Origin: a virus
Taxonomy: Duplodnaviria > Caudoviricetes
Strand: one strand, 5' to 3'
Length of the DNA stretch: 64,000 nucleotides
IMG/VR virus record: IMGVR_UViG_3300013426_000026
Coordinates: 39,395 to 103,394 of that record
Position numbers and translations under genes: made by a program. Below are positions 27,687 through 43,020 of this stretch, piece after piece. A model generated the notes under the pieces. That model was not told the DNA's origin. It did no database searches and saw only the letters and a list, made by a program, of their open reading frames with translations. The first letter of the stretch is position 1; each line of letters begins with the position of its first letter.

Positions 27687-28292
27687 ATGGAAAAATTGTA
27701 TAATATAAAGAATACTTTAATATCTTTGGTTGAATAGCAAATGGCTAATCCTCAATGCGTGGACACTCATGAAATGGGAGAAGTTATTGATATGATTAAG
27801 GATTTGGCTGAAGCTTGTTACTATGGTTCTATTGTTGATGCTATGGAAAAGACAGAAAGAGAAGAAGTTTATGGCATCGGTATGATGGATAAGGATTATA
27901 AAAAGCGTAGATATTATATGAATGATAATTACTTTGATGATAATTATTATTATGGTATTGGCGCAATGGATAACCGTAAATCTTCCAATAGTAAACATTC
28001 AACTGATAGAATGAGTTATATGGATAGCGATTTAGGATATAACGGTTCTGATTATATGGGTATTGGAGCAATGAGTGAAGACAGTAAAAAAATGGGCCAT
28101 AGTCCTTTAAAACGTAAATCTTATATCGAGAGTAAAGAAAAACATTTGGACTAGGCCCTGTAGATGAGAGAATTAGAAGATTACGCACAAGAATTAACTT
28201 CTGACCTCATGGATATGATAAAGGATGCAACTCCTGAAGAAAAACAATTATTATAGCGTAAAGTTGCAACGTTAGCAACAAAAATTGTATAA
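27687..28292 (+). CDS. cassette gene 5, helical hypothetical protein (201 aa, TAG=Gln)
   Basis: MEKLYNIKNTL...VDTHEMGEVIDMIKDLAEACYY...MRELEDYAQELTSDLMDMIKDATPEEKQLLQRKVATLATKIV; TAA 28290-28292. Confidence 0.8.
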
Positions 28293-28297
28293 AGAAT

Positions 28298-28335
28298 AAA
28301 TAAAGGGAAGCTTAATTGCTTCCCTTTATTTTTTT
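28298..28335. terminator. bidirectional terminator at the strand switch
   Basis: AAATAAAGGGAAGC-ttaatt-GCTTCCCTTTATTT between convergent genes. Confidence 0.85.
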
Positions 28336-28735
28336 AGTTATGCGTTACTTGATTAGTATATTTTTGTACTATTAGCGCAAACAACTAATCTCCCTAATGA
28401 TTTCCGCCTAAGCCATTATATGCTTCATGGTCGGCGTCTATATCACTATATTCATCAGGAGTTATAACATGATCAGTTTCTAATAATCTATAGCAATCAG
28501 CTATAAATTTAGGTCTTTGTAAAGAAAGTAAACCTTTTTTCAAAGACTATATTTCTTCTTCTTGCTAATCATGCTTTGTTTGCACTTCTTCTTGTAATTT
28601 TCTTATTTCAGCCTTTTGGTTTTCGGCATATTCATTTTTAACTAAATTAAAAAATCTTTTTAAAAACCAACTAAAAGCACCAATTACAATACCAAATAAT
28701 ATTTCTAACCAATACTGTAGGATAAATTCTAACAT
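28334..28735 (-). CDS. holin-like membrane protein (133 aa, TAG=Gln)
   Basis: MLEFILQYWLEILFGIVIGAFSWFL (TM), coiled coil, then HEAYNGLGGNHQGDQL; the YxxLGGN motif is common in Firmicute phage lysis-region proteins; GGAGG RBS. Confidence 0.6.
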
Positions 28736-28821
28736 TTATATAATTCCTCCAATATTTGTCGCTCTTTCTCATTATTATTAAAGAAAGAAATTATATAATT
28801 ATAAGGTTCCGCCCAAAGAAT

Positions 28822-29328
28822 TTATTCCCAATTTAATTCTTCTTTGTTAGATTTAAAATAGGCGGAATATAAACAAATTGCATCGCATACATCGTCATTG
28901 GCCTCTATTCCATAAGTATCTTTTACATACTAAATATCAAGCGGTTTGAGCTTTTCGCGTCTAACGCCACGTCCAGTTTTTATACCAAGCTAATGGCGCC
29001 ATTCGCTAGCCTACATAAACTCAATACTTTTGGAATTAATTTTATTATTTACAGAATGAGCGCCAAGGACAACTGACCCCTGAAGCCACATAAGTAAACG
29101 TGCTGTGTCTGAATATCCATATGCTTCTGGATGAACATCTTCGGCTATTAATTTTTCTATTTTATATTCTTTAATTAAATCTATAAGTTTACTCTATATT
29201 TTTTGAATACGAGCAACATTATTTTCTGAAGAAGCGGTAATTAATCCATAAGTAATTAAATTACCTTTATCATCGGAAATTGCATAACCTGTGGATTTTG
29301 TTGATAAATCTAAAAATAAAAAATTCAT
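28822..29328 (-). CDS. ruvC: RuvC-like Holliday junction resolvase (168 aa, TAG=Gln)
   Basis: FLDLSTKSTGYAI, LIAEDV, SEWRHQLGI, NDDVCDAICL acidic motifs; 4 in-frame TAG. Confidence 0.75.
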
Positions 29329-29377
29329 ATAAATCTCCTCCTATTATAGAAGGAGATTATTATTTATTAATTAATAA

Positions 29378-29917
29378 TTAATGACCAGTAGAACCGAAAC
29401 CGCCTTGACGAATTCCATTTGCTTTATCATCATCGGTGATAAGATAATTATAAATAATACCTTGGCCAATTCTATCTCCTCGATGAAGAATAATATCAAA
29501 AGGAGAAAGATTAATCATTTGAAAAAATATCTCACCATCATTATTTGAATTCCCATAATAGTCACTATCGATCTTACCTGACCCGTTAGCCATAATAAGC
29601 CAATTTTTAAGAGGGCAAGATGAACGGACGGAAATTTCAAGATATTGATTATCTTCCATATGACATTTCATGCCAGTAGAAACAAGAGTAGGTTTTAATT
29701 GAGATGCCTTTGTAATTTTACTAATTTCATCAAGAGTAATAGGATTTTCACTAACGGCGGTAAAAGACTTTTATTGCTCTACCATTTTAGGATAAGATGG
29801 AATTACAACGTCTTCCGCAACAGTAAAGTCATATCCTGCGCTTTTGGCGGTTTTGCGCTCAGGCATAGGTAAATTTACATCAGAAAAACGACTTACTTTT
29901 TCAAAATAAATACTCAT
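29378..29917 (-). CDS. dut: trimeric dUTPase with one in-frame TAA (29771-29773)
   Basis: KTAKSAGYDF, RSS, GKIDSDYY, GDRIGQGI and RQGGFGSTG motifs lie in one frame; the TAA falls in the variable insert after VIPSYPKMVEQ. Confidence 0.8.
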
Positions 29918-30162
29918 TATTCAACCTCATAATTAATAGAAACATGACTAATAGGTTCTTTTTCGGCATTAAACTTTTTAACTAAAGTCACTTGATACCA
30001 TTCATCAATGACCTCACCCTTTTGCTTTTGTTCTTTCTTTACTGAAGAATACTTTGCAAGTTCATATTGTTTATCTTGTTTTGCATTATTAATAAGCTCA
30101 GTGGCTTCTTTTTCAGTATTTACTCTATATACCTCAGTGGTATTAATTAAATATTCAAACAT
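29917..30162 (-). CDS. hypothetical protein (81 aa)
   Basis: Intact ORF with RBS; its stop overlaps the dut start. Confidence 0.7.
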   Translation of the reverse strand: MFEYLINTTEVYRVNTEKEATELINNAKQDKQYELAKYSSVKKEQKQKGEVIDEWYQVTLVKKFNAEKEPISHVSINYEVE

Positions 30163-30174
30163 TCCTTTTTCTCC

Positions 30175-30435
30175 TTAATTTAAATAAACATTAATTTTAT
30201 TATCACTAAATTTAGTATTTAATTGATATTCAATATTTTGTTTTAAACCTTCTCCATAAGTTTGATTACCATAAATATGGATATCACTGTCATTATATTG
30301 TTTAGCTAATTGCACCAATGTCTCATCCAAGTTCTCAAGTCGGCAAGTACAAAGCATTTTCCCCTCTTTATCTTCTGGAGATTTATAATAAACTAATTGA
30401 GTATTATTAAATAAATCAAAATAAGTATAAATCAT
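30175..30435 (-). CDS. hypothetical protein (86 aa)
   Basis: Intact ORF in a tightly packed operon. Confidence 0.65.
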   Translation of the reverse strand: MIYTYFDLFNNTQLVYYKSPEDKEGKMLCTCRLENLDETLVQLAKQYNDSDIHIYGNQTYGEGLKQNIEYQLNTKFSDNKINVYLN

Positions 30436-30437
30436 AA

Positions 30438-30962
30438 TTAGCCTTCCTTTACAAAAACAACGCCCGCGTCATAGCCAAATAAATAATAACAATTACTTGT
30501 TTTGTCCGAGTTTGTAATCCAAATTTCAATAGCTCCATTATTGTTATTAGAAATATCTTTAATATCTCCAAATTCTTGTAAATCATGCAAAATATCTAAA
30601 ACCGCGTCTGAAAATAAATTATAAGCCGTTTCATTTATGCTACTGGTTTCAAACATGGTAATATAGCTTAATTCTTTACAATATAACATTAAATATTTAT
30701 TTTTAGTCGTTTTGAAAAAATCTTCAATAATATTAAGCTTATCAAAAATTTGTTCTTCACTAAGAGGCTTCATTTGTGTCATTACTTGCTAATTTAATTC
30801 ATAATTTGTCATTTTAAGATTAATATCTTTAGTAATTATTGACCATTCTGTACCGGTCCAAGTATAATTTTGTTCATCAGAAATATTATAAAATACATCA
30901 CCAACTTGTGGAGCTTTACTAATGGCTTCATCTAAATTTTTTATTTTTCCTCGATATCTCAT
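30438..30962 (-). CDS. hypothetical protein (174 aa, TAG=Gln)
   Basis: ATG 30962 overlaps the nrdG TGA; extends track ORF 30438-30782 through one TAG. Confidence 0.7.
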
Positions 30963-31453
30963 TTATTCATCTCCTTCAAGTAAATAATATGTTGATTTAA
31001 ACTTCCCCTCATAGATAAAGTAATATCTCTTTGCTCTTGTATATAAGGGCCATCAACTAATACATCAATAGTATTTAAAATTTCTTGTAATTTGCCGTTT
31101 TCTTTTTTATTGATTAAATCTTCATAGTAATAGCCAGTCCATAAATAAATTTTTGTATTGGGTAATTTTTCTTTTACAAATCTAATAACTAATAAAGTTA
31201 ATAATTGATTTTGTTCACACAAAGGTTCTCCGCCAAGTATACAAAAATTTCTATGAACATTATTTGCCGTTAATGCCTAATAAATTTCATTAAATACATC
31301 ATTAGTGAATTCTTTTCCACCATTAAAATCCCACGTTTCAGGGTTATGGCATCCTTCGCAGTGATTAGGTTAAGGACAGCCCTAGGTCCAAAATGATACA
31401 TTTACCCCGGGGCCGTTTGCAACGTCATTGTATTTCAAATCAGCGTATTTCAT
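30959..31453 (-). CDS. nrdG: anaerobic RNR activase (radical SAM) with a 6-nt TAA-containing insertion in the CxxxCxxC motif
   Basis: DVANGPGVNVSFWTQGCP[*P]NHCEGCHNPETWDF, LGGEP, IYLWTGY, DVLVDGPY, RGSLNQ; TAA at 31370-31372. Confidence 0.85.
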
Positions 31454-32347
31454 TTAATCATCTCCTTTAAATAAATATTTAGAAGTTTCAGGAATTAAAT
31501 CAGATAAAATTATACAGTCTCGTTTTTCATAAGGTATTCTAATTAATAAAATATTATTTTCTAAACAATAGTTATCTTTTATTTTATCTCATTCTTGCAA
31601 ATCTTTAAAATCTTCTATGGTACTACTCCAAGTTGTAAATGGAGTAGTGTGCTATTTTCCATCAAACTCTATAAAGTAAGGATTTTTATTATTGTTTGGT
31701 ATATAAAAATCAAAACGTAATTTTCTTTGGAGATTTTCGGGATGAAATTCTTGTATAAATTCAATATTGTTGTTTCTTAAAATATTGGCGATATTTTGTT
31801 CACCTATGGAATAATTTATACAGCCACAACTTTGTATTTTCTAACTTTTTAAATGCTTTCCTAATATACTTTTTTGTTTTCCACAATCACATTGACAAAT
31901 CCATCTTGGTCCATTTTCATTGTTTGACCAATCTCTATCCAACACAAGTAAATGATTAAATTTCTATCCAATTAGATTATTTCCTTTTGTGTACTAATGA
32001 TGTTTTACAAAATTTCCACATGAAGTACTTGTTCCCTATGTTAGATGTGATTTATAAACTGATTTTACAATTCCACATGAACATTGGCATAAAACACAAC
32101 CTGGTTTCTAATTTTGTTCATCAATTACTATCCATTCTCCAAATTTTTTATTTAAAATACTTTTCTTCTATAAACATCCACAGCTTTTAACTCTTCCACG
32201 TCTTAATGCGGTGCCTCTAATACTTTTTATATTCCCGCATGAGCAACTACAAATCCAATGTTTATCAGGCGCTATGTTGTTTTTGTCCAAATATAATACT
32301 GTTAATAAACCATATTTATTTCCAGTTTCATCAATAAATTTACCCAT
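31454..32347 (-). pseudogene. free-standing homing-type endonuclease (three CxCxCG...SCG repeats plus a PD-(D/E)XK-like domain) with an in-frame TGA
   Basis: WICSCSCG...KSCGC repeats; SIGEQNI...RFDFYI...FIEFDGKQH...LIRIPY; TGA at 31589-31591 in QE*DKIKDNYC; sits between nrdD and nrdG. Confidence 0.65.
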
Positions 32348-32351
32348 AGTA

Positions 32352-35300
32352 TTATAAATGGCATACCCTATCTCTTATTTCATTAGTTCGGCCGTGATTC
32401 CAAAATTGAGAACCGATATCTTTGACACCCTCGGTTTCCCGATATTTATTAGGGGAATAGACTATACAATATTTATTATTATTATTATTATTTGTGGCAA
32501 AATTGTCCTTTGTTATTTCTAGCTTTATTTCCATTAGTGAATCCATACAATAGATTATCTTTATGAGACATCCATTCTAAATTATTTAAATTATTATTTT
32601 TAGGATTATTATCCTTATGATTTACATCAGATAGATGCTCTGGATTTGAGATAAACATTTCAGCTATAATTCTATGAATATAAACATCTTCTCGTTCGTT
32701 AGTGCTGTCGCATCTCATGTAAATTCGAGCATATCCGGTTTTTGTATATCTAGGAGTTAATTCTTTTGGGGATATCCATTTCGATTTGTCAAAACGATTT
32801 CGACATCCTTTGGGAATTACAGAGTATATTTTTCCATCTTTACTAATTTTATATCCTGTAAAATCTGGAATATCATACAGTTTTTCCATAATTATTATCT
32901 CCTTTCTTTATTTTTAATAATAATAATAATAATAAATTCCCTATTATAGTCGTTGAACGTTCCTCCGGCCTGGAGGCTTCGCTGCGTTTGATTGCCCAAT
33001 CTCAAATGATTTTACTATACCGTTTCCGTTGCTAAACGCCATTTATATATTCCTATATAAATTTAGTTATTTGAGCTTAAGGGGTTCCCCGCAATTTAAG
33101 GGATTTAGTGTGGACAATATCGTTTATCCACAGGTTCTGCGTGCAACATTAAGTGTTTCATGGTCTCGATTACCACAATTAGGGCAATACCATTTGAGAT
33201 TATCATCTATTAAAATTTCTCCATCGTAGCCACATTTTTGGCAATAATCAGATTTAGTATTTAATTCAGCATACATGATATGATTATAAATAAATTGCAT
33301 TACAGTTTCTACGGCCTCAATATTATTCTGAAGATTAGGAGTCTCAATATAACTAATTGCACCACCAGGACTCAATGCTTGGAATTCAGCTTCAAGAGCC
33401 AATTTATTAAAAGCATCAATTTCTTCAAATACTGGGACATGGTAACTATTTGTAATGTAATCTCTATCTTTGCCATCAAGTTTTATAAAAATATCTTTCC
33501 CGAAACGTTTTTTAAGGCAAGTGGCAAATTTATATGTTGTACTTTCAATTGGAGAACCATAGACGCTATAAGAAATATCCTCTTCGGCACGCCATTGTGA
33601 GCAAGCATCATTTAAGTGTTGCATAACTTTAAGGCCAAACTCTTTCCCACCTTTAGTATGACTTTCTCCAGTCATATATTTAACACATTCATAAAGCGCT
33701 GCATAACCAAGAGATAAAGTAGAATAATTATTATGCAATAATTTGTGAATACTTTCTCCTTGATTTAATCTGGCCAAAGCGCCGTAACGCCACAATATAG
33801 GTGAAACATCGGCAGTTGCGTGGCTTAATCTTTCATGCCTTGCTTGTAAAGCTCGATGGCATAATTCAAGACGTTCATCAAATAATTGCCAGAATTTTTC
33901 AAAATCTTTATTGGAACTAAAAGCGATATCAGCAAGATTAATGGTGACCACTCCCTAGTTGAAGCGGCCATAATATTTGTGACTAATAGGGTCGGGCGTG
34001 AGGAAACTTCTACACATATTAATCCAATATTGCTATTGGGACTGACTATATCTTCTATCTTAAAATTAAGATAGTCTTCCGCTTCGGTTTTCAGTTGCTT
34101 CGTTTCCTAAAACAACGGTGGTGCTTATCTCCACCCCTACTCCCATACATTCATCAGGGATAGTCGATACACTTTAATTCAAAATTTCAATTTTATATTG
34201 GTTTTTAATAATAAAATATGGCTCTTCCTTATGTTTATAGGCTTTTCCGCTAAAAGTTTTTTCTGATAGTTGAAAATATCGTTCGGCTTCAGCGTAGCTA
34301 TTAAATTTGTATATAGTATTATCTAATAAATTTGTTACCTATATTTTTCTTGCTCGAGCATTATTTTTATTCACACTATATTCTGGATAGTTCTCATTAG
34401 CATAAGCAATTTGCCACTATTTACGATATAGACATTTTGTTTGTCCTAAGCAACGTCGTGTAATAAAATTATGATTCGTTTCATTAAAAAAAGCCTGCAT
34501 CTCAGATATAGAATCAAAATAGTATTCTTCATCTGTATTGATATTTCTACATTTAACGGCCGTTGCCTATGGATTTTTACCCGCTTTTTTACTGCTTGAA
34601 ATTTTTTGTTTAATTTCTTTTAATTCGTTAGAAGTTTTGTATTTATAAGTATTACCGCCACTTTTAAGGCAAGAATCTGTCTCATTATAACCCATTTCTA
34701 TTGAATTATAAAAATGAATCCAATAAACTTCTTTTTGATTGAGTTCCTCTTGTGTTTCAGCGCGGTCTATTTCTATAACAGTAAAATTATTTGGGCCATA
34801 TTTACGAATTGCTCTTGCTAAATGGGTATCAATCCTATTATTAATTGTATCATAAATATGTCGCTAAAATCTTTCTTCTATTGTTTTAGAAGTTTGACCA
34901 ATATAAATTTTTTGATTTATCTAATTTGTAATTTTATATACTAGCATTTTTCTCACCTTTATATTAATGTGAGAAAGGGTCTAGTTAATTTAATTAAAAT
35001 AGTCCAAGAAATTTTAAATTCTTAGCACGGTCTCATCCTAACAGTAGGACCTAACCGTTGGCCTATTAAATTATTAATAGACACCCGCGAGCGCGGTTCA
35101 AAAGATTTTACATGAGCTGTAGTTTACGCTTACCCATGCATGGATAAACATCACCTTTTAATTCCTTCATTATTTTTTCAGAAATATAATCAGGTACCAA
35201 GCGTTTTGCCGTACATTTAGCGGCCAGCTCTGTTAAATACCAATATTTACCATTTGGAGTAATATTATCTTCTTCAAGAACATAAAGCAATTTGGGGAAA

Positions 35301-36301
35301 GCTGGAGTAATATATACACCTTTTTCATTTTTAAATCCAAGAATACGTTGATTTAAAAATTCTTCAATCAACATAGCTAATTCTTCTTTATATTCTTCAG
35401 TTTCATTCAAATACATATATACCGAAAGAAAAGGGGCTTGTCCATTTGTATTAGTCATAGAATTAGTTTGGTAATTAAAGGTTTGAACAGCATCAACAAT
35501 TTCTTTGTGTAAATCTTCTTCTACGAATTCTCTGGCTTGCTCTTTACTTAATCCTCGATATTGATATTTCTTAATATATCTTTCTTTACTACTTCTAACA
35601 AAAGGAGCCAAATGACTTAATGAAATAGTCGCTCCACCATAAGAAGAAGAAGTTACTGCAGCAATAATTTGTGTAGCAATTGTTGTTGCTGTAAGTAAGC
35701 GATGAGGCTTTTCAATCATAACACCATTCACTACCGTACCATTCTGCAACATATCATCAAGATTAATTAATTCACAATTATGTAAAGCATTTTGCGCGAA
35801 ATAATCTGCATCATGAAAATGTATAATTCCTTCATCATGGGCTTTTACGATATCAGCATCCAAAAGAAAACGTCGGGTAATATCTGTACTAACAATGCCG
35901 GCCATATAATCTCTTTGTACTGTGGTACGTTTAGCATTTTTATTAGAATTTTCATTATTCCAATAATCGCTATTTCCTTCTAATAATTCTCTGATAGATT
36001 TATCAGTGGTATTAGATTGACGGACCATTTCTTTTTTATATCTATATCTAATATAAGCCCGCGCAACATCACGTCGTTCAGAACGCATAAGATAATCTTC
36101 AATTAAATCTTGAATATCTTCTACTTCTATACTACCATCTGGACATTTTAACATCCATTTTTCAATATCATTAGCAATATCTATAGCGGTATCACTTTCA
36201 TAAAGCTAACCATCAACTTCTATAAACGCTTTATCGATTGCATTTATAATTTTGTTTTTATCAAATAAAACGACTGTGCCGTCTCGTTTAATTATATACA
36301 T
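32352..36301 (-). CDS. nrdD: anaerobic (class III) ribonucleotide reductase, 3 exons
   Basis: Exons 36301-35132, 34014-33126 and 32419-32352. ATP cone (IKRDG), PCMG|CRSFL, GRFNQGVVT (Q=TAG at 33955-57), and RRTCG-Y|IG glycyl-radical motif. Confidence 0.95.
32420..33125 (-). mobile_element. group I intron 2 of nrdD (706 nt) with HNH endonuclease
   Basis: Splits the TAT codon of RTCGY; P1 GUGGAU/GUCCAC; CAACGACTA and TATAGTC P7 strands; terminal G. Confidence 0.9.
32488..32889 (-). CDS. intron-encoded NUMOD4/HNH homing endonuclease (133 aa)
   Basis: YKISKDGKIYS...YIHRIIAEMFI...VNHKDNNPKNNNLNNLEW. Confidence 0.85.
   Translation of the reverse strand: MEKLYDIPDFTGYKISKDGKIYSVIPKGCRNRFDKSKWISPKELTPRYTKTGYARIYMRCDSTNEREDVYIHRIIAEMFISNPEHLSDVNHKDNNPKNNNLNNLEWMSHKDNLLYGFTNGNKARNNKGQFCHK
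34015..35131 (-). mobile_element. group I intron 1 of nrdD (1117 nt) with GIY-YIG endonuclease
   Basis: Lies between MG and CRS; P1 CAUGGGU/GCUCAUG; GTATCGACTA and AAGATATAGTC; terminal G at 34015. Confidence 0.9.
34174..34947 (-). CDS. intron-encoded GIY-YIG homing endonuclease (257 aa, TAG=Gln)
   Basis: MLVYKITNQINQKIYIGQTSKTIEERFQRH...AIRKYGPNNF...GYNET; NUMOD-like C-terminal repeats. Confidence 0.85.
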
Positions 36302-36397
36302 TTATTAACCTCCATACTGTAATATAGTATAGCCTTATAATAAGCTATACTATATTTAGTATTTTTTATTAATTAATTGTCCTTTTTGGGCCAAGAT

Positions 36398-36967
36398 TTA
36401 GTCCCAAAACCAAGGATGGTCCATAATCTTATCACAACATTTTAATTCATCTTGTTGAATTTCATTAAATAATATTTCCATATTATCAAATTTTATATCT
36501 TTAAAATCTTCTTCATCTGCAAAATAACGTCTAATAATTTCTTTAACATCTGGATATTCTTCTCTACTCAATTGGCGTAAAAAACGTTGTTTATCAGAAG
36601 CATGAATATAATATATTTGTAAATCAATGTCTGAAAAATTAAGTAAAGTTTTAATACCCGAAGGATTGAAAATTCCTATGTTAATTTTATTTTTATCTAA
36701 ACATTTAATGCCAGTTCCATACCACCAGTTATTAAATTGAATATATTCAAGCATTTGATTATTATTTACCATTTGCTCGAATTCTTTTTCAGAAATAAAA
36801 TGATATTCTTTCCCCTCTATTTCTCCTTCACGCATTGGACGAGTTGTATAAGAGATAATATAATTTATAGATGAATCAGATATTCTTATTACATCTTTTA
36901 AAATGGTATCTTTCCCTGACCCAGCTTTGCCTATCAATGCTATTAATTGATATTTTTTATTCTTCAT
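36398..36967 (-). CDS. gmk: guanylate kinase
   Basis: GKAGSGKDT, YTTRPMREGEIEGKEYHF, WYGT. Confidence 0.9.
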   Translation of the reverse strand: MKNKKYQLIALIGKAGSGKDTILKDVIRISDSSINYIISYTTRPMREGEIEGKEYHFISEKEFEQMVNNNQMLEYIQFNNWWYGTGIKCLDKNKINIGIFNPSGIKTLLNFSDIDLQIYYIHASDKQRFLRQLSREEYPDVKEIIRRYFADEEDFKDIKFDNMEILFNEIQQDELKCCDKIMDHPWFWD

Positions 36968-39900
36968 CTTCGGCCACTCCTTGATATCGTTCACTTCTTA
37001 ATAGTAAATCTCCATTTGGTTTAATTTCATCAATATGATACAATTGATGTCCAATTGTAGAAGCATATTTTTTAGGAATGAAATCATCGCCTGAACGAAT
37101 ACCTTGAACTACAATCATATTACCACGATTAAACCAAGATTTTTCCATAATTTTTTTAGTCCCATCTGGTTGTTTTTGCGATATTTGCTTATCAAATAAA
37201 CTAAAATATTCTTTTCTAAATTTTATATTAACAACTCCAGTTGGAGTTAATATTGTGACCATACTTTTATTTTTATTCTTGGCGATACAAGTTCCGCAAA
37301 TTTTAGATAAATAATAAATATTAATAGTTTTACCTGCCTTTGTAAAACTACGTTCTATTCTAGGCTCTTCCGGTAATTGATTAAAATCAACATACCCATA
37401 TTTTTTACTATTAATATTAGCTAATTCATGTTCGTGATAATAGAAACATAATACTTCCATTTCCCAAGCTGAGTAATTATTTTTAGAACAATATTTATTC
37501 CAATCATCTTTAAAAATTAAAGTATTTAATTTATTCAAAATTTCTTGCTTATTTTCAGCTATTTGCGCGCGATATACATCCATCCATTTATCATAGACTT
37601 TATTTTTCCATGCCTCAGTTGACATTAAATAATTAACTCTATCATTATAAATTAAATCATCTTTATCAATTTTTTGCAAGAAATTAATTGCGCGTTCATC
37701 TAATTTATAATCCGCTTTAGTATATTTACATACTGTTTTTAAGTACCGAGTAAATTCATAAATATGTAAAGCTTGTTCTCTTTCTTTTGTATCTGCTGGA
37801 AGTAAATTAAATTTCATTAATGTTGCAAGATTTTGAAGATTAAGATTGGATTTTTTATCACAAGTTTCCCAAATATACCAAGCCATACAAAGTTTTCTAT
37901 CCATCATATTATCAAAAGCTCCACCCTTAATAAGTGAAATCATAGCTTGCTTATTAGGTTTTACTTTCAATAAAAATTCCTTTAAATTCTTATAAGGACG
38001 ATGTTCAATAATTGATTTAACTACATCATCACCGACATTAAGTATACCTTTTAATCCAAAAAGGATTTGATTATTTTCCGTATCAGGAATAAAACTAAAG
38101 TCTGATTTATTGATATCAGCTAAACTAATTTTTATACCGGCTTGACGAATATCTCCAATGGCCTTGGCAATTTTTCCATAATCGGTAGAATTAGTTTTTC
38201 TTATTTTTGTTTTTTTATCAGGTAAGTCTTTAAAAGTAACTCCATTAATTAAATCATCATTTTCTGGTTCATAGATATCTACAATTTCTTCTTCACTATT
38301 GTCTTCCAGAGAGCCACTATTGACAATCAAGCAAGCGCAATTCCAATAAATAGGATTATAATGAATAACAAAATAAATCATTTGAATAGCAACAAATGAA
38401 TAAGGAAGTGAATGATTAAGAGAGAAGGCATAACCTAGCTGGGGAGCAATAGCTGTTTCCCAAAAATATTCTGCGTCATTTTTATTATTGAAACGACTAA
38501 ATACTTGTTCTTTTAATTGAGGAATTTTAGCCATTTGTTTTTTTGCTACTACTTTACGAGCGGAATTAGCTTCTCCTAATGTAAAATGAGCTATATCCAT
38601 AAGAATTTCCATCATTTGTTCTTGTAAAGGACAACAACCATAATATTTATCACAGTGTTTATGAAATTTATCAATAAGTTCTTGAGGTAAATGATGTTGT
38701 TTCATTTCTTGATCAAAGGCTTGAATACCTTGGTGTTGAATTCGATAAAATCTATCTTGCTGTGATTCTTTACCTTTTTCTGACGTAAGACGCATCATAG
38801 CATTAGCTGCTGTCATTTCCATAGGGTCTTGCGGTTTTAGTTTTTTGGCGATGGCTAACCCTACACCAGTAGAAAACTGGAAACAGTCTAATACATCTCC
38901 GGTGGCTAAATGATCCCAAATTTTTTGGTCTGTAGTATCTATTACTTCTGGATGAATATATTGATTATAAAAATCTCTTAAAGATAAGTCAGGAATTTCT
39001 TTAGCTTTTAATAATAATTCATAACAAGTAATAATTTTATCAGAAGCTTCAGTTACAAGAAAATCATATTTTGTATCGCCCGCACTTTCTGCCTGATGGA
39101 GGTCCCAACATGTAATCAAGCTACCACTGGGCGTGCGCATAAAACTAGCAGTTTCATATGGATCATCATCATAAAGAATGACTCCAGAAGCATGCGATGA
39201 ACGTTTATTAACAATGCCACCGATATAAATAATTATATCAAGTAATCCGGGATATTCATTTACTTTATTTAAAAAAGTCTTAACAGGTTTTCTATCTTTA
39301 GCTTCATTGCCATAAATAACATCATTAATTTCCCATAAAAATCCACGCTCTTGCGGGATAAGAGAAGACATATATTGCGCTTCATCTACGTCAATACCAT
39401 TTGGATATTCATCTGACCTATAACCGCGACAAGCAGTAAGAATAGCAGACTTAGTAGTTTCAGTGCCAAAGGTAGCAACCTGAATTAATCCTAATTCTCC
39501 ACGTTCTTTGCGAATAGCTTCAAAAATTGCAGGACGTTTTGAAGGAGCTAAGTCAATATCAATGTCCGTTTTTATTGGACTATATTTTTTACGATAATTT
39601 ACTGAGAGCATTTTAATTCAATTATCGCTAGAACATCTTTCAGATGGTGCTTATCTCCATCTTACATAATAGTCTCTACACATTTAATCTTCCGATTTTT
39701 AGCACGGTATTATCAATCTATCCATTCTCAGGACATAGACTCTCTTAGTCAGTTGATTCGTTCTTAAAATTAATTAAGACTTATTTCGCTGATACCGTTA
39801 GCCTGCATTAAGCAGACACCCATTAAGCAATGGTTAATGTTCTTTTTTTACAACTGCCCAACATCAATATTAGACTAGGCAGTTCGGCTCTCTCTTTATT

Positions 39901-41271
39901 CAGAAAGCGCCAATACGGAAGGCCCCAGTGAATAGGGTCAAGCTAAGTAATACCTAATAGATAATTAGACAAAAAGCCTGTAGCTGAGCCGCGCCCAGGA
40001 CCTACAATAGAGCCGCAATTCCAGAACAAATCAATATAATGTTTAAAAGTATTAAAATAAGCAAAAAGGCAATCATCCAGTTTTTTACCAATATCTTTAA
40101 TGATATCAGCTTCAATTTCAAGACGATTTAAATATATATCAAGCTTGTTTTCAGAAATACTTTTATTATACATCTTTTCTAATAAAGACATATAACATTC
40201 ATTAACCCAATAACGCTCTTGAGGGTTATTACTCATTAATAAACTACATAAAATTGGATATTTTTCTTCACGCTCACCATACCATCCACTTAATGATTGA
40301 GGATAATTAGTTACTTCTACTTTTGGAATAATTTGCTTTCTTTCGAGAGAAAAATCTTGTATTTTATTTTGAATTTCAAAAGTATTATTTAAAATTTCTT
40401 TAGCTATTTCTTCTGGTTGTTCTTCTATATCTAAATATATAAAACAAGGAGTAATTAATTCAAAAACTTCATCATAAGTCATTAAATGAGCAAATTCATA
40501 AAATTTATCAACTTCTCGTTCTCCATCTTTTGAATTTAGGTAAGCCTTATGAATTGGCCTATCTTCTTTAGTTAAATAATGACTGTCTGTCGCTACTTCC
40601 ACTTTAATATTATAATTACGACCAATTTTATAAATCATATGATTTACAAGCTTTTGATCGGACATAGTAGAAGGGGCAATCTCAAGATAAAAATCATCGG
40701 CAAATAAATCTTTACAAAAATTAAGGAAATTATCTAATTGTTTTAATGTTTGATATAATTCATATTTATTATCTTCTTCTTGGCATTTAATAATTTTTAG
40801 TAGACAAGAACCTAACTCACCACCAATACAAGCCGTAGTAGCAATTAAATGTCCTTTGTATCTTTCTGCTATTGGTTTTAATTCATTTTTTAAAAGTGGA
40901 ACTCGTTCCATTTTTCTATCAACATATAAATTTTGCCAAGCTATTGAGCTTAATTCTTTTAATGCTCGATAACCTATAGCATCTTTAGCAATTAAAATAA
41001 AATGATAATATTTTTGCCCTGTGCTTCTATCATCAGTTAAATAAACTTCATTGCCTAAAGCTATTTTAAAATTGGGATATTTTTCTTTAATTTTTTTTGC
41101 ATATTGATTTGCTATCATATGAGCTGAAAGACTTTCGTGGTCTGTAATAGCAATACCAGAAAGCCCTAACTCTATTGCTTTATCTATTAAAGCTTCTGGT
41201 TTATTTATACAATCAAGTAATCGGAGGTTCGAATACATAGTATGATTGTGACAATTAAAATAGGTATTCAA
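36957..41271 (-). CDS. dnaE: DNA polymerase III alpha subunit (DnaE-type), 2 exons
   Basis: Exons 41271-39877 and 39566-36957. PHP domain (HNHTMYS, AITDH), GPGRGSA, RAELP|DIDID catalytic motif, SSHASGV, YAFSLNHS; one TAG (GITQLDP). Confidence 0.95.
39567..39876 (-). mobile_element. ORF-less group I intron in dnaE (310 nt)
   Basis: Lies between P and DIDID; P1 CUGCCU/GGGCAG; GAGACTA and AATATAGTC; terminal G. Confidence 0.88.
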
Positions 41272-41297
41272 AATTTTCCTCCTTTAATTTATTTCTA

Positions 41298-41331
41298 TAA
41301 ATATTATACTATAATTTTTCATTAAAGGCAA
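41298..41331 (-). promoter_or_regulatory. sigmaA-type promoter for dnaE
   Basis: TTGCCT-17-TATAAT followed by ATTTA. Confidence 0.6.
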
Positions 41332-41333
41332 TC

Positions 41334-41525
41334 TTAAAAATCATCTATTTCATTAGCTATTCTATTTATAATACTGGCGAGTTCGATTAAATTTTGTTTA
41401 TAAGTAGACAAATTATTCTTTAACTTTTGATTTTCAGAACATAACCAAGTGATTTGATTTTGATTATGTTGTTGCTGTTTATCTAATTCTTGTCCTAATT
41501 GATTAAGTAAATTTTGTATTTCCAT
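41334..41525 (-). CDS. small coiled-coil hypothetical protein
   Basis: MEIQNLLNQLGQELDKQQ...; ATG overlaps the upstream TAA. Confidence 0.6.
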   Translation of the reverse strand: MEIQNLLNQLGQELDKQQQHNQNQITWLCSENQKLKNNLSTYKQNLIELASIINRIANEIDDF

Positions 41526-41821
41526 TAGCCACATTCACATTCTTCATGCGTAATTTTCATAAAATCATCCTTACAAAGAATATTTAAAGTATCTATAATT
41601 TCATCTTTGTTATTAACTACATCAATTTCATTAGGCAAATAAACCATTGGAAACCATGTTTGAAATTCTTCATTAAAATGTCCCTCTAAAATAGAAGAAA
41701 TAGCATATTGCTAATATAAATATAAAAATTTCTCATAATTTTTATTTCTAATTGTTTCAGAAATTTCTTTTCTTTCTTGTTCAGGTATCATATGATGATA
41801 CCAATAATAAATATAATTCAT
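41525..41821 (-). CDS. hypothetical protein (98 aa, TAG=Gln)
   Basis: MNYIYYWYHHMIPEQERK...; one TAG; fills the gap between neighbouring genes. Confidence 0.55.
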
Positions 41822-41826
41822 ATATT

Positions 41827-43020
41827 TCACTTCCTTATTATAACCAATTTTTTTGTAGCGCGAGTGATACCAGTATATAGCCATCTACGATGCTCATTAC
41901 TTTCAAAAGGAAATTTTTCTTCCTTTAATAAAACTTTATCCCATTCACTACCCTAGGCCTTATGTACCGTAATTGCATAAGCATATGTAAAATTATATGG
42001 CGCTTCTAAACCTTCACCTTCTCTAGCAAAGTTATTTATTGTAAATAATTGTTTTTTATCAAAAGCCTGCTCACCAGTTATGATAGCATCGTAATCTATT
42101 GGAATACTTTCAAAACGTCCATTCTCTATTTCCATACCTGTGAACATAAATTTAACTTCTTTATCATATATTTGAGGAGGGTATAAATAAGGCATTATTT
42201 GATAATTTGTAATTATTCCAATGGTACCATTGGTTAAAGCCCATTGTTGATTAGTAGATAAAAAATCCCAATGATTGGTTAATCCTATAATTTTATCTCC
42301 AACTTCTGGTTCAATTCCTCGACCTTGGCGCGATCGAACATTATTATTAATTTGTATTCTTGTTTTATTAGTTGCGCATAATATTTGGTCCGCCCAATCG
42401 TACATAGATGGTTCTAATTCATAATTTCTAAAAATCATAACATGTTCATTAGCACAAGGGAAAGTACCAATTGGTTTACCTTCCCTAATCCACATAGATA
42501 AGCGAATTATTTCACTATCTTGTGCTTGACGCATAATCTCATCAAGAAAAATATGAGGATTATCTAATATATGATTATTTTGATCTTCATAAATTGGTGG
42601 AAGCTAAAATGGGTCACCACAGGCTATTACATATTTATGATGTGAAAGAAGTAAATCCCACATTTTTTTAGGCAGCATAGAAATTTCATCAACAACAATT
42701 ACTTTATATTCTATAGGTCGTCTTGGTTTTAAATAAAATGTTCCATTTGGACGAGGTTTGGCTTCATATAATAATTTATGAGCCGTAGTAGCATTAGGAC
42801 ATCCTTTTGATTGTAAAACTGTAGCTGCTTTGCCAGTGTAAGCTACATATGCCACATCTGTTTTTGGATTAACTCCAAGAGCACTAATAATAAATTTTAC
42901 TAATGTTGATTTACCTGTTCCAACTTAAGCATAGCCAGCAATACAAGTATAAGGTTCATGGCTCTTGTATCTGGCTACGGCAATTTTCAATCCAGCATTC
43001 TATTTATCAGTTAATGTCAA
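41827..43020 (-). CDS. RecD/Dda-like SF1B helicase with a 6-nt TAA-containing insertion in Walker A
   Basis: TTG start with GGAGG. IAGYA[*V]GTGKST, AYTGKAA, VVDEISM, GDPFQLPP and HKAQGSEW (both Q=TAG), WLYTGITRA; TAA at 42925-42927. Confidence 0.85.

Follow-up and report, generated by a model that had tools for sequence, protein, structure and literature searches.

A stop-containing gap that recurs in phage nrdG genes belongs to a homing-endonuclease cassette and may be crossed by a short ribosomal hop

How can a gene carry a stop codon in the middle of its iron-sulphur motif and look otherwise intact? The question is raised by nrdG in a 64,000-nucleotide stretch of gut phage DNA (IMG/VR record IMGVR_UViG_3300013426_000026, positions 39,395 to 103,394; hereafter the window). 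The gene runs on the minus strand from an ATG at 31453-31451 to a TGA stop at 30961-30959. Around its Fe-S motif it reads GGC TGT CCT TAA CCT AAT CAC TGC GAA GGA TGC, with the codon for the first cysteine (Cys1, TGT) at 31378-31376, a CCT at 31375-31373, the TAA at 31372-31370, a second CCT at 31369-31367 and the end of the motif at 31349. The CX3CX2C signature does not lie in one uninterrupted frame: what is encoded is C-P-stop-P-N-H-C-E-G-C, and the canonical spacing appears only if 6 nt are skipped. The initial annotation had placed a CCT-TAA-CCT in this motif, at 31361-31384, and had described an insert of exactly 6 nt whose removal gives C-P-N-H-C-E-G-C. Both points were borne out, the TAA lying on the minus strand and the same 6 nt being absent from 58 uninterrupted relatives. 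The parts of the gene are as follows.

31373..31453, minus strand: nrdG part 1, codons 1-27, from the ATG to the proposed take-off Pro codon CCT, including Cys1 (TGT, 31376-31378) of the radical-SAM motif
31367..31372, minus strand: six extra bases, TAA (31370-31372) and the second CCT (31367-31369, the proposed landing codon), absent from the 58 uninterrupted loci
30959..31366, minus strand: nrdG part 2, 135 codons and the TGA (30959-30961), with Cys2, Cys3 and the remaining activase, open under code 15

The same 6-nt insert can alternatively be placed as CCT TAA at 31370-31375. As a simple tandem duplication it fits poorly (CCTTAA against CCTAAT).

On either side of the insert the gene closely resembles its uninterrupted relatives. 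The residues of part 1 up to 22 are identical to those of an intact NrdG (P0004), part 2 shares 94% identity with intact NrdG proteins of 162 aa, and with the TAA masked the gene matches Pfam Fer4_12 (PF13353) over profile positions 1-137 of 137 (E=5e-39). The 58 uninterrupted loci, which come from IMG/VR, metagenomes and public assemblies, have CX3CX2C, or CX8CX2C in one distant clade (L011, L042-L044 and L051), where the longer loop (GCQKALDGNPCPGC) is written in sense codons.

The 6-nt insert is real, inherited phage DNA. It is present in Logan contig L055 (SRR1747051), which is 99.976% identical to the window over 8.4 kb, and in Logan contig L140 from the unrelated run SRR29834447, at 97.2% identity. 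That an assembly or sequencing error produced 6 nt absent from the phage DNA is next to impossible, given that both of these assemblies, which were produced from different runs and with a different assembler, contain them, one in a background only 97% identical, and given variants at the same nrdG site in seven more lineages. Among 5.8 billion proteins there was no intact NrdG more than 94% identical, and identical neighbouring genes were found on 7 contigs. An exact-pattern scan of IMG/VR, where near-identical records may be missing, returned for the window's version of the site only two chance matches, both outside nrdG.

Could the TAA be a sense codon in this genome? The phage uses code 15: we counted 411 in-frame TAG codons, and nrdG itself holds two TAG codons read as glutamine in addition to its single TAA. 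Because TAA ends 88 of the 108 called genes (TGA ends 20), it must be regarded as a genuine stop here. Reassignment of TAA as well (code 6) was rejected, since sense TAA would fuse genes throughout the window. The 103-kb contig (56% complete) carries no release-factor gene, no tRNA gene and no suppressor tRNA. It had been proposed that a hop would tie NrdG synthesis to release-factor status and so add a second recoding layer to code 15. This rationale lacks support and is also unnecessary: L177, a phage that reads TGA as tryptophan, has the same interruption, and the nrdG genes of L159 and L160 are interrupted though their nrdD has no in-frame TAG or TGA.

The context that best accounts for the insert lies immediately upstream, where the space between nrdD and nrdG is taken up by a further gene, HEG3.

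31454..32347, minus strand: HEG3, a free-standing homing-endonuclease-like gene (by PHROG matches) between the nrdD stop and the nrdG start
31344..32329, minus strand: shared mobile block, comprising nearly all of HEG3 and nrdG nt 1-110 with the insert; 3 mismatches in 986 nt against L140

HEG3 (~0.9 kb) matches PHROG families of HNH, homing and intron-encoded endonucleases (E=2e-39 to 6e-22), and a comparison with Pfam gave no significant match (best DUF2726, E=0.09). Its presence is polymorphic, with sharp borders. The nearest relative, L057, which is 94.5% identical downstream, has neither the 0.9-kb HEG3 segment nor the insert in nrdG, and its nrdD stop overlaps the nrdG ATG. Between the window and L140, which represent two different phage backgrounds, the block is 99.7% identical, as against 89% on its 3' side (28 mismatches in 265 positions) and about 94% on its 5' side (8 in 125). 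From this distribution of mismatches it follows that HEG3, the 5' end of nrdG and the insert move together between diverged phages. The insert is thus part of a homing-endonuclease cassette directly upstream of nrdG. Within the window HEG3 has an in-frame TGA at codon 253 (31589-31591), inside the nuclease domain. The PHROG matches extend beyond this TGA, and the HEG3 of L140 (P0134) is intact, with 297 aa and a sense Arg codon at the same place. The window's copy is probably a pseudogene in decay, with the gap retained, much like mobA in T4.

The history of the cassette bears on how selection at this locus is to be read. The 99.7% identity to L140 marks the cassette as recent in the window's lineage, and the intact downstream reading frame of the window is therefore, taken alone, no sign of selection after insertion. 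Close relatives without the insert, together with relaxed selection on the gene, had been named beforehand as the outcome that would speak against a functional bypass. Endonuclease-free relatives do lack the insert, whereas nothing points to relaxed selection, dN/dS being 0.07 for part 2 of the window's nrdG compared with L057, its nearest intact gene. Against L057, synonymous divergence of nrdG is saturated over 31274-31453 (dS about 2) and 0.47 over the remainder, and the segment after the insert is closest to another phage, L001. Such a mosaic 5' end is to be expected from co-conversion with the cassette.

Farther upstream, nrdD is in three pieces, split by two endonuclease-bearing inserts that resemble group I introns.

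32352..32419, minus strand: proposed last nrdD exon (..YIGSQFWNHGRTNEIRDRVCHL, TAA 32352-32354), matching the uninterrupted nrdD C-termini of L057 and L380
32420-33125, minus strand: nrdD insert with an HNH gene (32488-32889), at one boundary between nrdD pieces
about 34015-35122, minus strand: nrdD insert with a GIY-YIG gene (34174-34956), at the other boundary

The boundaries lie at conserved ..CMG/CRSF.. and ..RRTCG/Y.. sites (slashes mark the junctions), and the nrdD stop sits 4 nt before the HEG3 ATG. As in group I introns, a T precedes the 5' junctions of the inserts, and the last base of the first insert is G; an Rfam scan of 28000-43000 found no group I intron or other family. The earlier impression that nrdD looks functional holds insofar as the gene is intact in the window, although only as three pieces with two inserts between them. 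A DnaE-like DNA polymerase, also on the minus strand, is represented by two adjacent open reading frames (482 aa and 884 aa; 36957-39611 and 39823-41271) about 210 nt apart, and may represent a split gene or one that a further small element interrupts.

Is the interruption of nrdG peculiar to this lineage? All HEG3 homologues with 63-80% identity occupy the space between nrdD and nrdG, and in L163/L167, L176, L177 and L285 the same spot is taken by a GIY-YIG-type endonuclease (the endonuclease genes of L163, L176 and L177 match GIY-YIG). In every locus found with an endonuclease of either type at this spot, nrdG is interrupted right after Cys1-Pro, and neither type stands immediately upstream of nrdG in any of the 58 uninterrupted loci. 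A search for HEG3 homologues in IMG/VR gave 80 loci, at most 51% identical and none adjoining nrdG. Loose pattern scans yielded mostly chance matches, and a filter on downstream NrdG similarity kept L163, L167, L176, L177 and L285 among the matches listed. A scan of IMG/VR for the 7-nt pattern gave no match. The stop-containing sites read as follows.

Window, L055 and L140: CCT TAA CCT, 6-nt gap
L160: CCT TAA CCT, 6-nt gap
L163 and L167: CCT TAA CCT, 6-nt gap
L176: CCG TAA CCG, both Pro codons changed jointly
L285: CCA TAA CCA, both Pro codons changed jointly
L177 (TGA=W phage): CCG TAA CCT, difference at the wobble position
L174 and L175: CCT TAA CTT, C-to-T at the middle position, which could still pair as G-U
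L159: CCT TGA A CCT, 7-nt gap, reading frame resuming in the +1 frame

Conserved or covarying codon-stop-codon inserts in related nrdG genes, which the initial annotation had named as a check on its reading, are therefore present in at least eight interrupted lineages, with CCT/CCT, CCG/CCG and CCA/CCA among their flanks. The stop stands directly 3' of the first Pro codon in all eight (TAA in seven, TGA in one), and the flanking Pro codons match exactly in six of the eight distinct interrupted genes (CCT/CCT four times, CCG/CCG and CCA/CCA once each). Each of the four Pro codons is found at this position among the uninterrupted alleles. Since the flanks of interrupted genes stay matched through T, G and A, they covary as expected for a take-off and landing pair; the covariation amounts to two double changes, set against a single wobble mismatch and a single G-U case. 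L159, a single contig, has 136 open codons after its 7-nt gap, in the +1 frame set by the second CCT, and because the downstream reading frame is shifted in this way readthrough is unable to rescue the gene. When the gap is removed, each of the eight interrupted genes, which share 46-71% identity, encodes a full-length NrdG that retains every conserved motif and is free of further lesions.

Two further groups of loci combine a HEG3 homologue with an altered nrdG. In L152-158 (11 contigs; L152:3392-3900) the nrdG that follows the homologue (80% identity) has a 6-nt insert in sense codons, TGT CCA CAT TCT CCT CAT TGC, which encodes C-P-H-S-P-H-C and hence CX5C. These genes have ATA in place of the ATG, and CFNKETW at the conserved CHNPETW. 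In L380 (1443-1656) a homologue of 68% identity, representing a cluster of 157 sequences, precedes an nrdG that reads GGC CCA TAG CCT, with Cys1 changed to Gly and the Gly of the C-x-G-C stretch changed to Asp. The L380 gene may be a decayed copy or may come from a TAG=Q phage, and the cassette lineages of both L152-158 and L380 may be decaying.

How, then, might NrdG be made from the interrupted gene? We consider it probable that a programmed short translational hop operates here, within a mobile cassette like that of gene 60 and mobA. HEG3 has inserted between nrdD and nrdG and travels as a block with nrdG nt 1-110 and the insert, which falls in the Fe-S cysteine motif, where nrdG is most conserved. 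By analogy with T4 mobA and gene 60, the insert would break the endonuclease's own target and so shield a cassette-bearing genome from cutting. A ribosome reaching the first CCU with UAA in its A site would be slow to terminate, the peptide ending in Pro and the stop being followed by C. The peptidyl-tRNA(Pro) would leave this CCU and pair again at the identical codon 6 nt downstream, after which decoding would continue at AAU. Nine nucleotides would then specify one proline, and the product would be the normal 162-residue NrdG with C-P-N-H-C-E-G-C, its junction peptide reading ...QGCPNHCEGCHNPETW. Since NrdG acts as an activating enzyme, even a small amount of it might be enough. The minimal CCT-to-CCT bypass originally proposed for this gene gains its support from the relatives, through their intact reading frames, their covarying codons and the 7-nt gap.

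We looked for signals at the nrdG site that might assist such a hop. Hopping should be favoured by a peptide that ends in Pro, by a C following the stop and by a purine-rich AGGG/AAGGA 3-4 nt upstream. All three are present in uninterrupted alleles too, and for this reason the Shine-Dalgarno-like stretch is no dedicated signal. Single-sequence z-scores and consensus folding revealed no dedicated stimulatory RNA structure: the site has a weak 7-bp hairpin (z = 0.41; consensus -5.2 kcal/mol, no net covariation support), which is inherent to the motif because of its Gly-Cys-Pro and Gly-Cys codons. Part of the codon matching could stem from the origin of the insert, such as a 3-bp duplication flanking TAA. 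Of 152 stops that join long open reading frames in the genome, six have matched flanks, and homology on both sides was found only at nrdG; by a rough, uncomputed estimate, matched flanks would arise by chance at about 4% of stops in an AT-rich genome.

A second site in the window has a comparable interruption.

43020 to 41827, minus strand: Dda-like helicase gene, TTG start 43020, stop 41827 (PHROG E=2e-81)

Its Walker A motif reads GGC TAT GCT TAA GTT GGA ACA GGT AAA, with the TAA at 42916-42918. This is a 6-nt stop insert, encoding G-Y-A-stop-V-G-T-G-K-S, and it was missed by a screen for matched codons because its flanks are GCT and GTT. Relatives have either an intact motif (GYAG[ST/V]GKS) or one of the following stop-containing gaps.

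6-nt gaps: GCT TAA GCT; GCC TGA ACT; GCC TAA ACC
7-nt gap: GCT TAA G GCA
5-nt gaps: GCT TGA CT or GCT TAA CT

Behind every one of these gaps the downstream reading frame follows the shifted frame. In five genomes with a common 5-nt gap, the 364 downstream codons show dN/dS of 0.015-0.098 at dS up to 0.64. Such purifying selection behind a 5-nt gap means that translation must cross the gap, which readthrough cannot do. The landing codons are less strictly matched than those of nrdG, and no endonuclease gene lies directly beside the helicase site in the window. Taking both sites together, we lean slightly towards a more general proposal, that phage homing-endonuclease cassettes carry 5-7-nt stop gaps in conserved target motifs as a form of self-immunity, and that these gaps may be crossed by unassisted hops between matched codons.

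Two other accounts of the nrdG locus have to be weighed against a hop. The gene may simply be dead, inactivated by the stop insert of a selfish cassette, with host NrdG activating the phage NrdD or with the class III reductase being dispensable. We think this unlikely. It is consistent with the recent arrival of the cassette in the window's lineage, with the in-frame TGA in HEG3, with close relatives that have neither endonuclease nor insert, and with the changes at conserved NrdG residues or loss of the ATG in L152-158 and L380. A dead gene would not, however, be expected to stay free of a second lesion through about 160 codons in each of eight diverged interrupted genes, to keep covarying Pro codons on either side of the stop, or, in the 7-nt variant, to maintain an open frame downstream in the shifted register. 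Only rarely, too, would a random killing insert preserve the frame and have the same codon on both sides. Moreover, the window retains an intact nrdD, though one that bears two introns, and the helicase offers a parallel in which strong purifying selection acts behind a frame-breaking gap.

The alternative that the ribosome recodes the site by other means appears distinctly improbable. Readthrough of the TAA, combined with a +1 frameshift at CCT-TGA-A in L159, would give a CX5CX2C activase (C-P-X-P-N-H-C), and since the Cys1-Cys2 loop varies naturally in length (CX8CX2C in L011, L042-44 and L051) such a product might work. A CX5CX2C is indeed encoded in sense codons by L152-158, and in L159 both the +1 shift and a hop would lead into the same frame downstream. 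Yet this account requires two different mechanisms at one conserved site and leaves the matching, covarying Pro codon after the stop unexplained. Furthermore, no suppressor tRNA is present on the contig, TAA is the main genuine stop of the genome, and the sole lineage with a sense-coded CX5C has lost its ATG and has odd residues in conserved blocks.

The pattern's recurrence in about eight distant phages suggests that ribosomes hop at this site in nature, an event previously seen only in synthetic constructs. If this is true, programmed bypassing needs none of the elaborate signals of gene 60, and the 9-nt site would offer a simple natural system in which to study the release of peptidyl-tRNA and its re-pairing on mRNA. 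It would also mean that selfish endonucleases can invade the catalytic motifs of important genes at little cost, and the window would contain two representatives of a first natural 'stop-hop' family, at the Fe-S motif of nrdG and at Walker A of the helicase. Full-text literature searches returned no description of an interrupted nrdG. On public contigs no gene is called over this nrdG. Gene callers leave such genes uncalled or truncated, and the metabolic potential of phages is therefore under-counted.

The closest precedent for the proposed hop itself is synthetic. In E. coli, engineered stop-hops between matched codons have been described (Weiss, Dunn, Atkins and Gesteland 1987; O'Connor 1989; both as cited in PMC5009743), and unassisted hops in this organism have been characterized as low-level. 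As in those constructs, matched codons flank the stop in nrdG, 9 nt would specify one amino acid and elaborate signals are lacking. Unlike them, the nrdG arrangement is natural, recurrent and tied to a mobile element; the same 2016 recoding review (PMC5009743) knows of no natural stop-hops. Among natural systems, the byps of Magnusiomyces mitochondria are described in that review as having an unused codon in the A site (Lang 2014; Nosek 2015; cited in PMC5009743). They resemble the nrdG insert in being short mobile inserts in coding regions that are corrected at translation between matched take-off and landing codons, and differ in that the nrdG gap has a stop in the A site. The byps inserts are 27-55 nt long and belong to a mitochondrial system, and they are not known to be tied to endonuclease genes. 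With the +1 frameshift of prfB (RF2), nrdG shares an A-site stop preceded by a slippery codon in the P site and a purine-rich, Shine-Dalgarno-like AGGG/AAGGA (Gln-Gly codons) 3-4 nt upstream, although re-pairing in nrdG would take place 6-7 nt downstream rather than 1 nt.

T4's own nrdG is not known to be interrupted. In T4-like phages mobC and segH are free-standing endonucleases between nrdD and nrdG, and the intergenic site thus holds interchangeable endonuclease families there as it does in the relatives of the window; in contrast to the window, the passage describing mobC and segH mentions no nrdG interruption. The most extensive likeness is to T4 gene 60, whose insert protects against the endonuclease MobA, according to the summary of Huang 1988 and Bonocora 2011 in bioRxiv 10.1101/2022.08.31.505936. 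The comparison sets a T4 system against one in which bypass and cleavage protection are putative, deduced by comparing sequences. The nrdG gap has 6-7 nt, as opposed to 50 in gene 60, with no detectable dedicated stem-loop and no known nascent-peptide signal; the take-off codon is Pro CCN rather than Gly GGA, the gene and the endonuclease family differ, and nrdG is not split. What the two have in common is a free-standing endonuclease directly upstream of a conserved gene, a stop-led noncoding insert that lies tens of nucleotides into that gene and moves with the endonuclease, matching take-off and landing codons, an endonuclease that has become a pseudogene in some carriers while remaining intact in others, and the occurrence of the same gap in the company of different endonuclease families.
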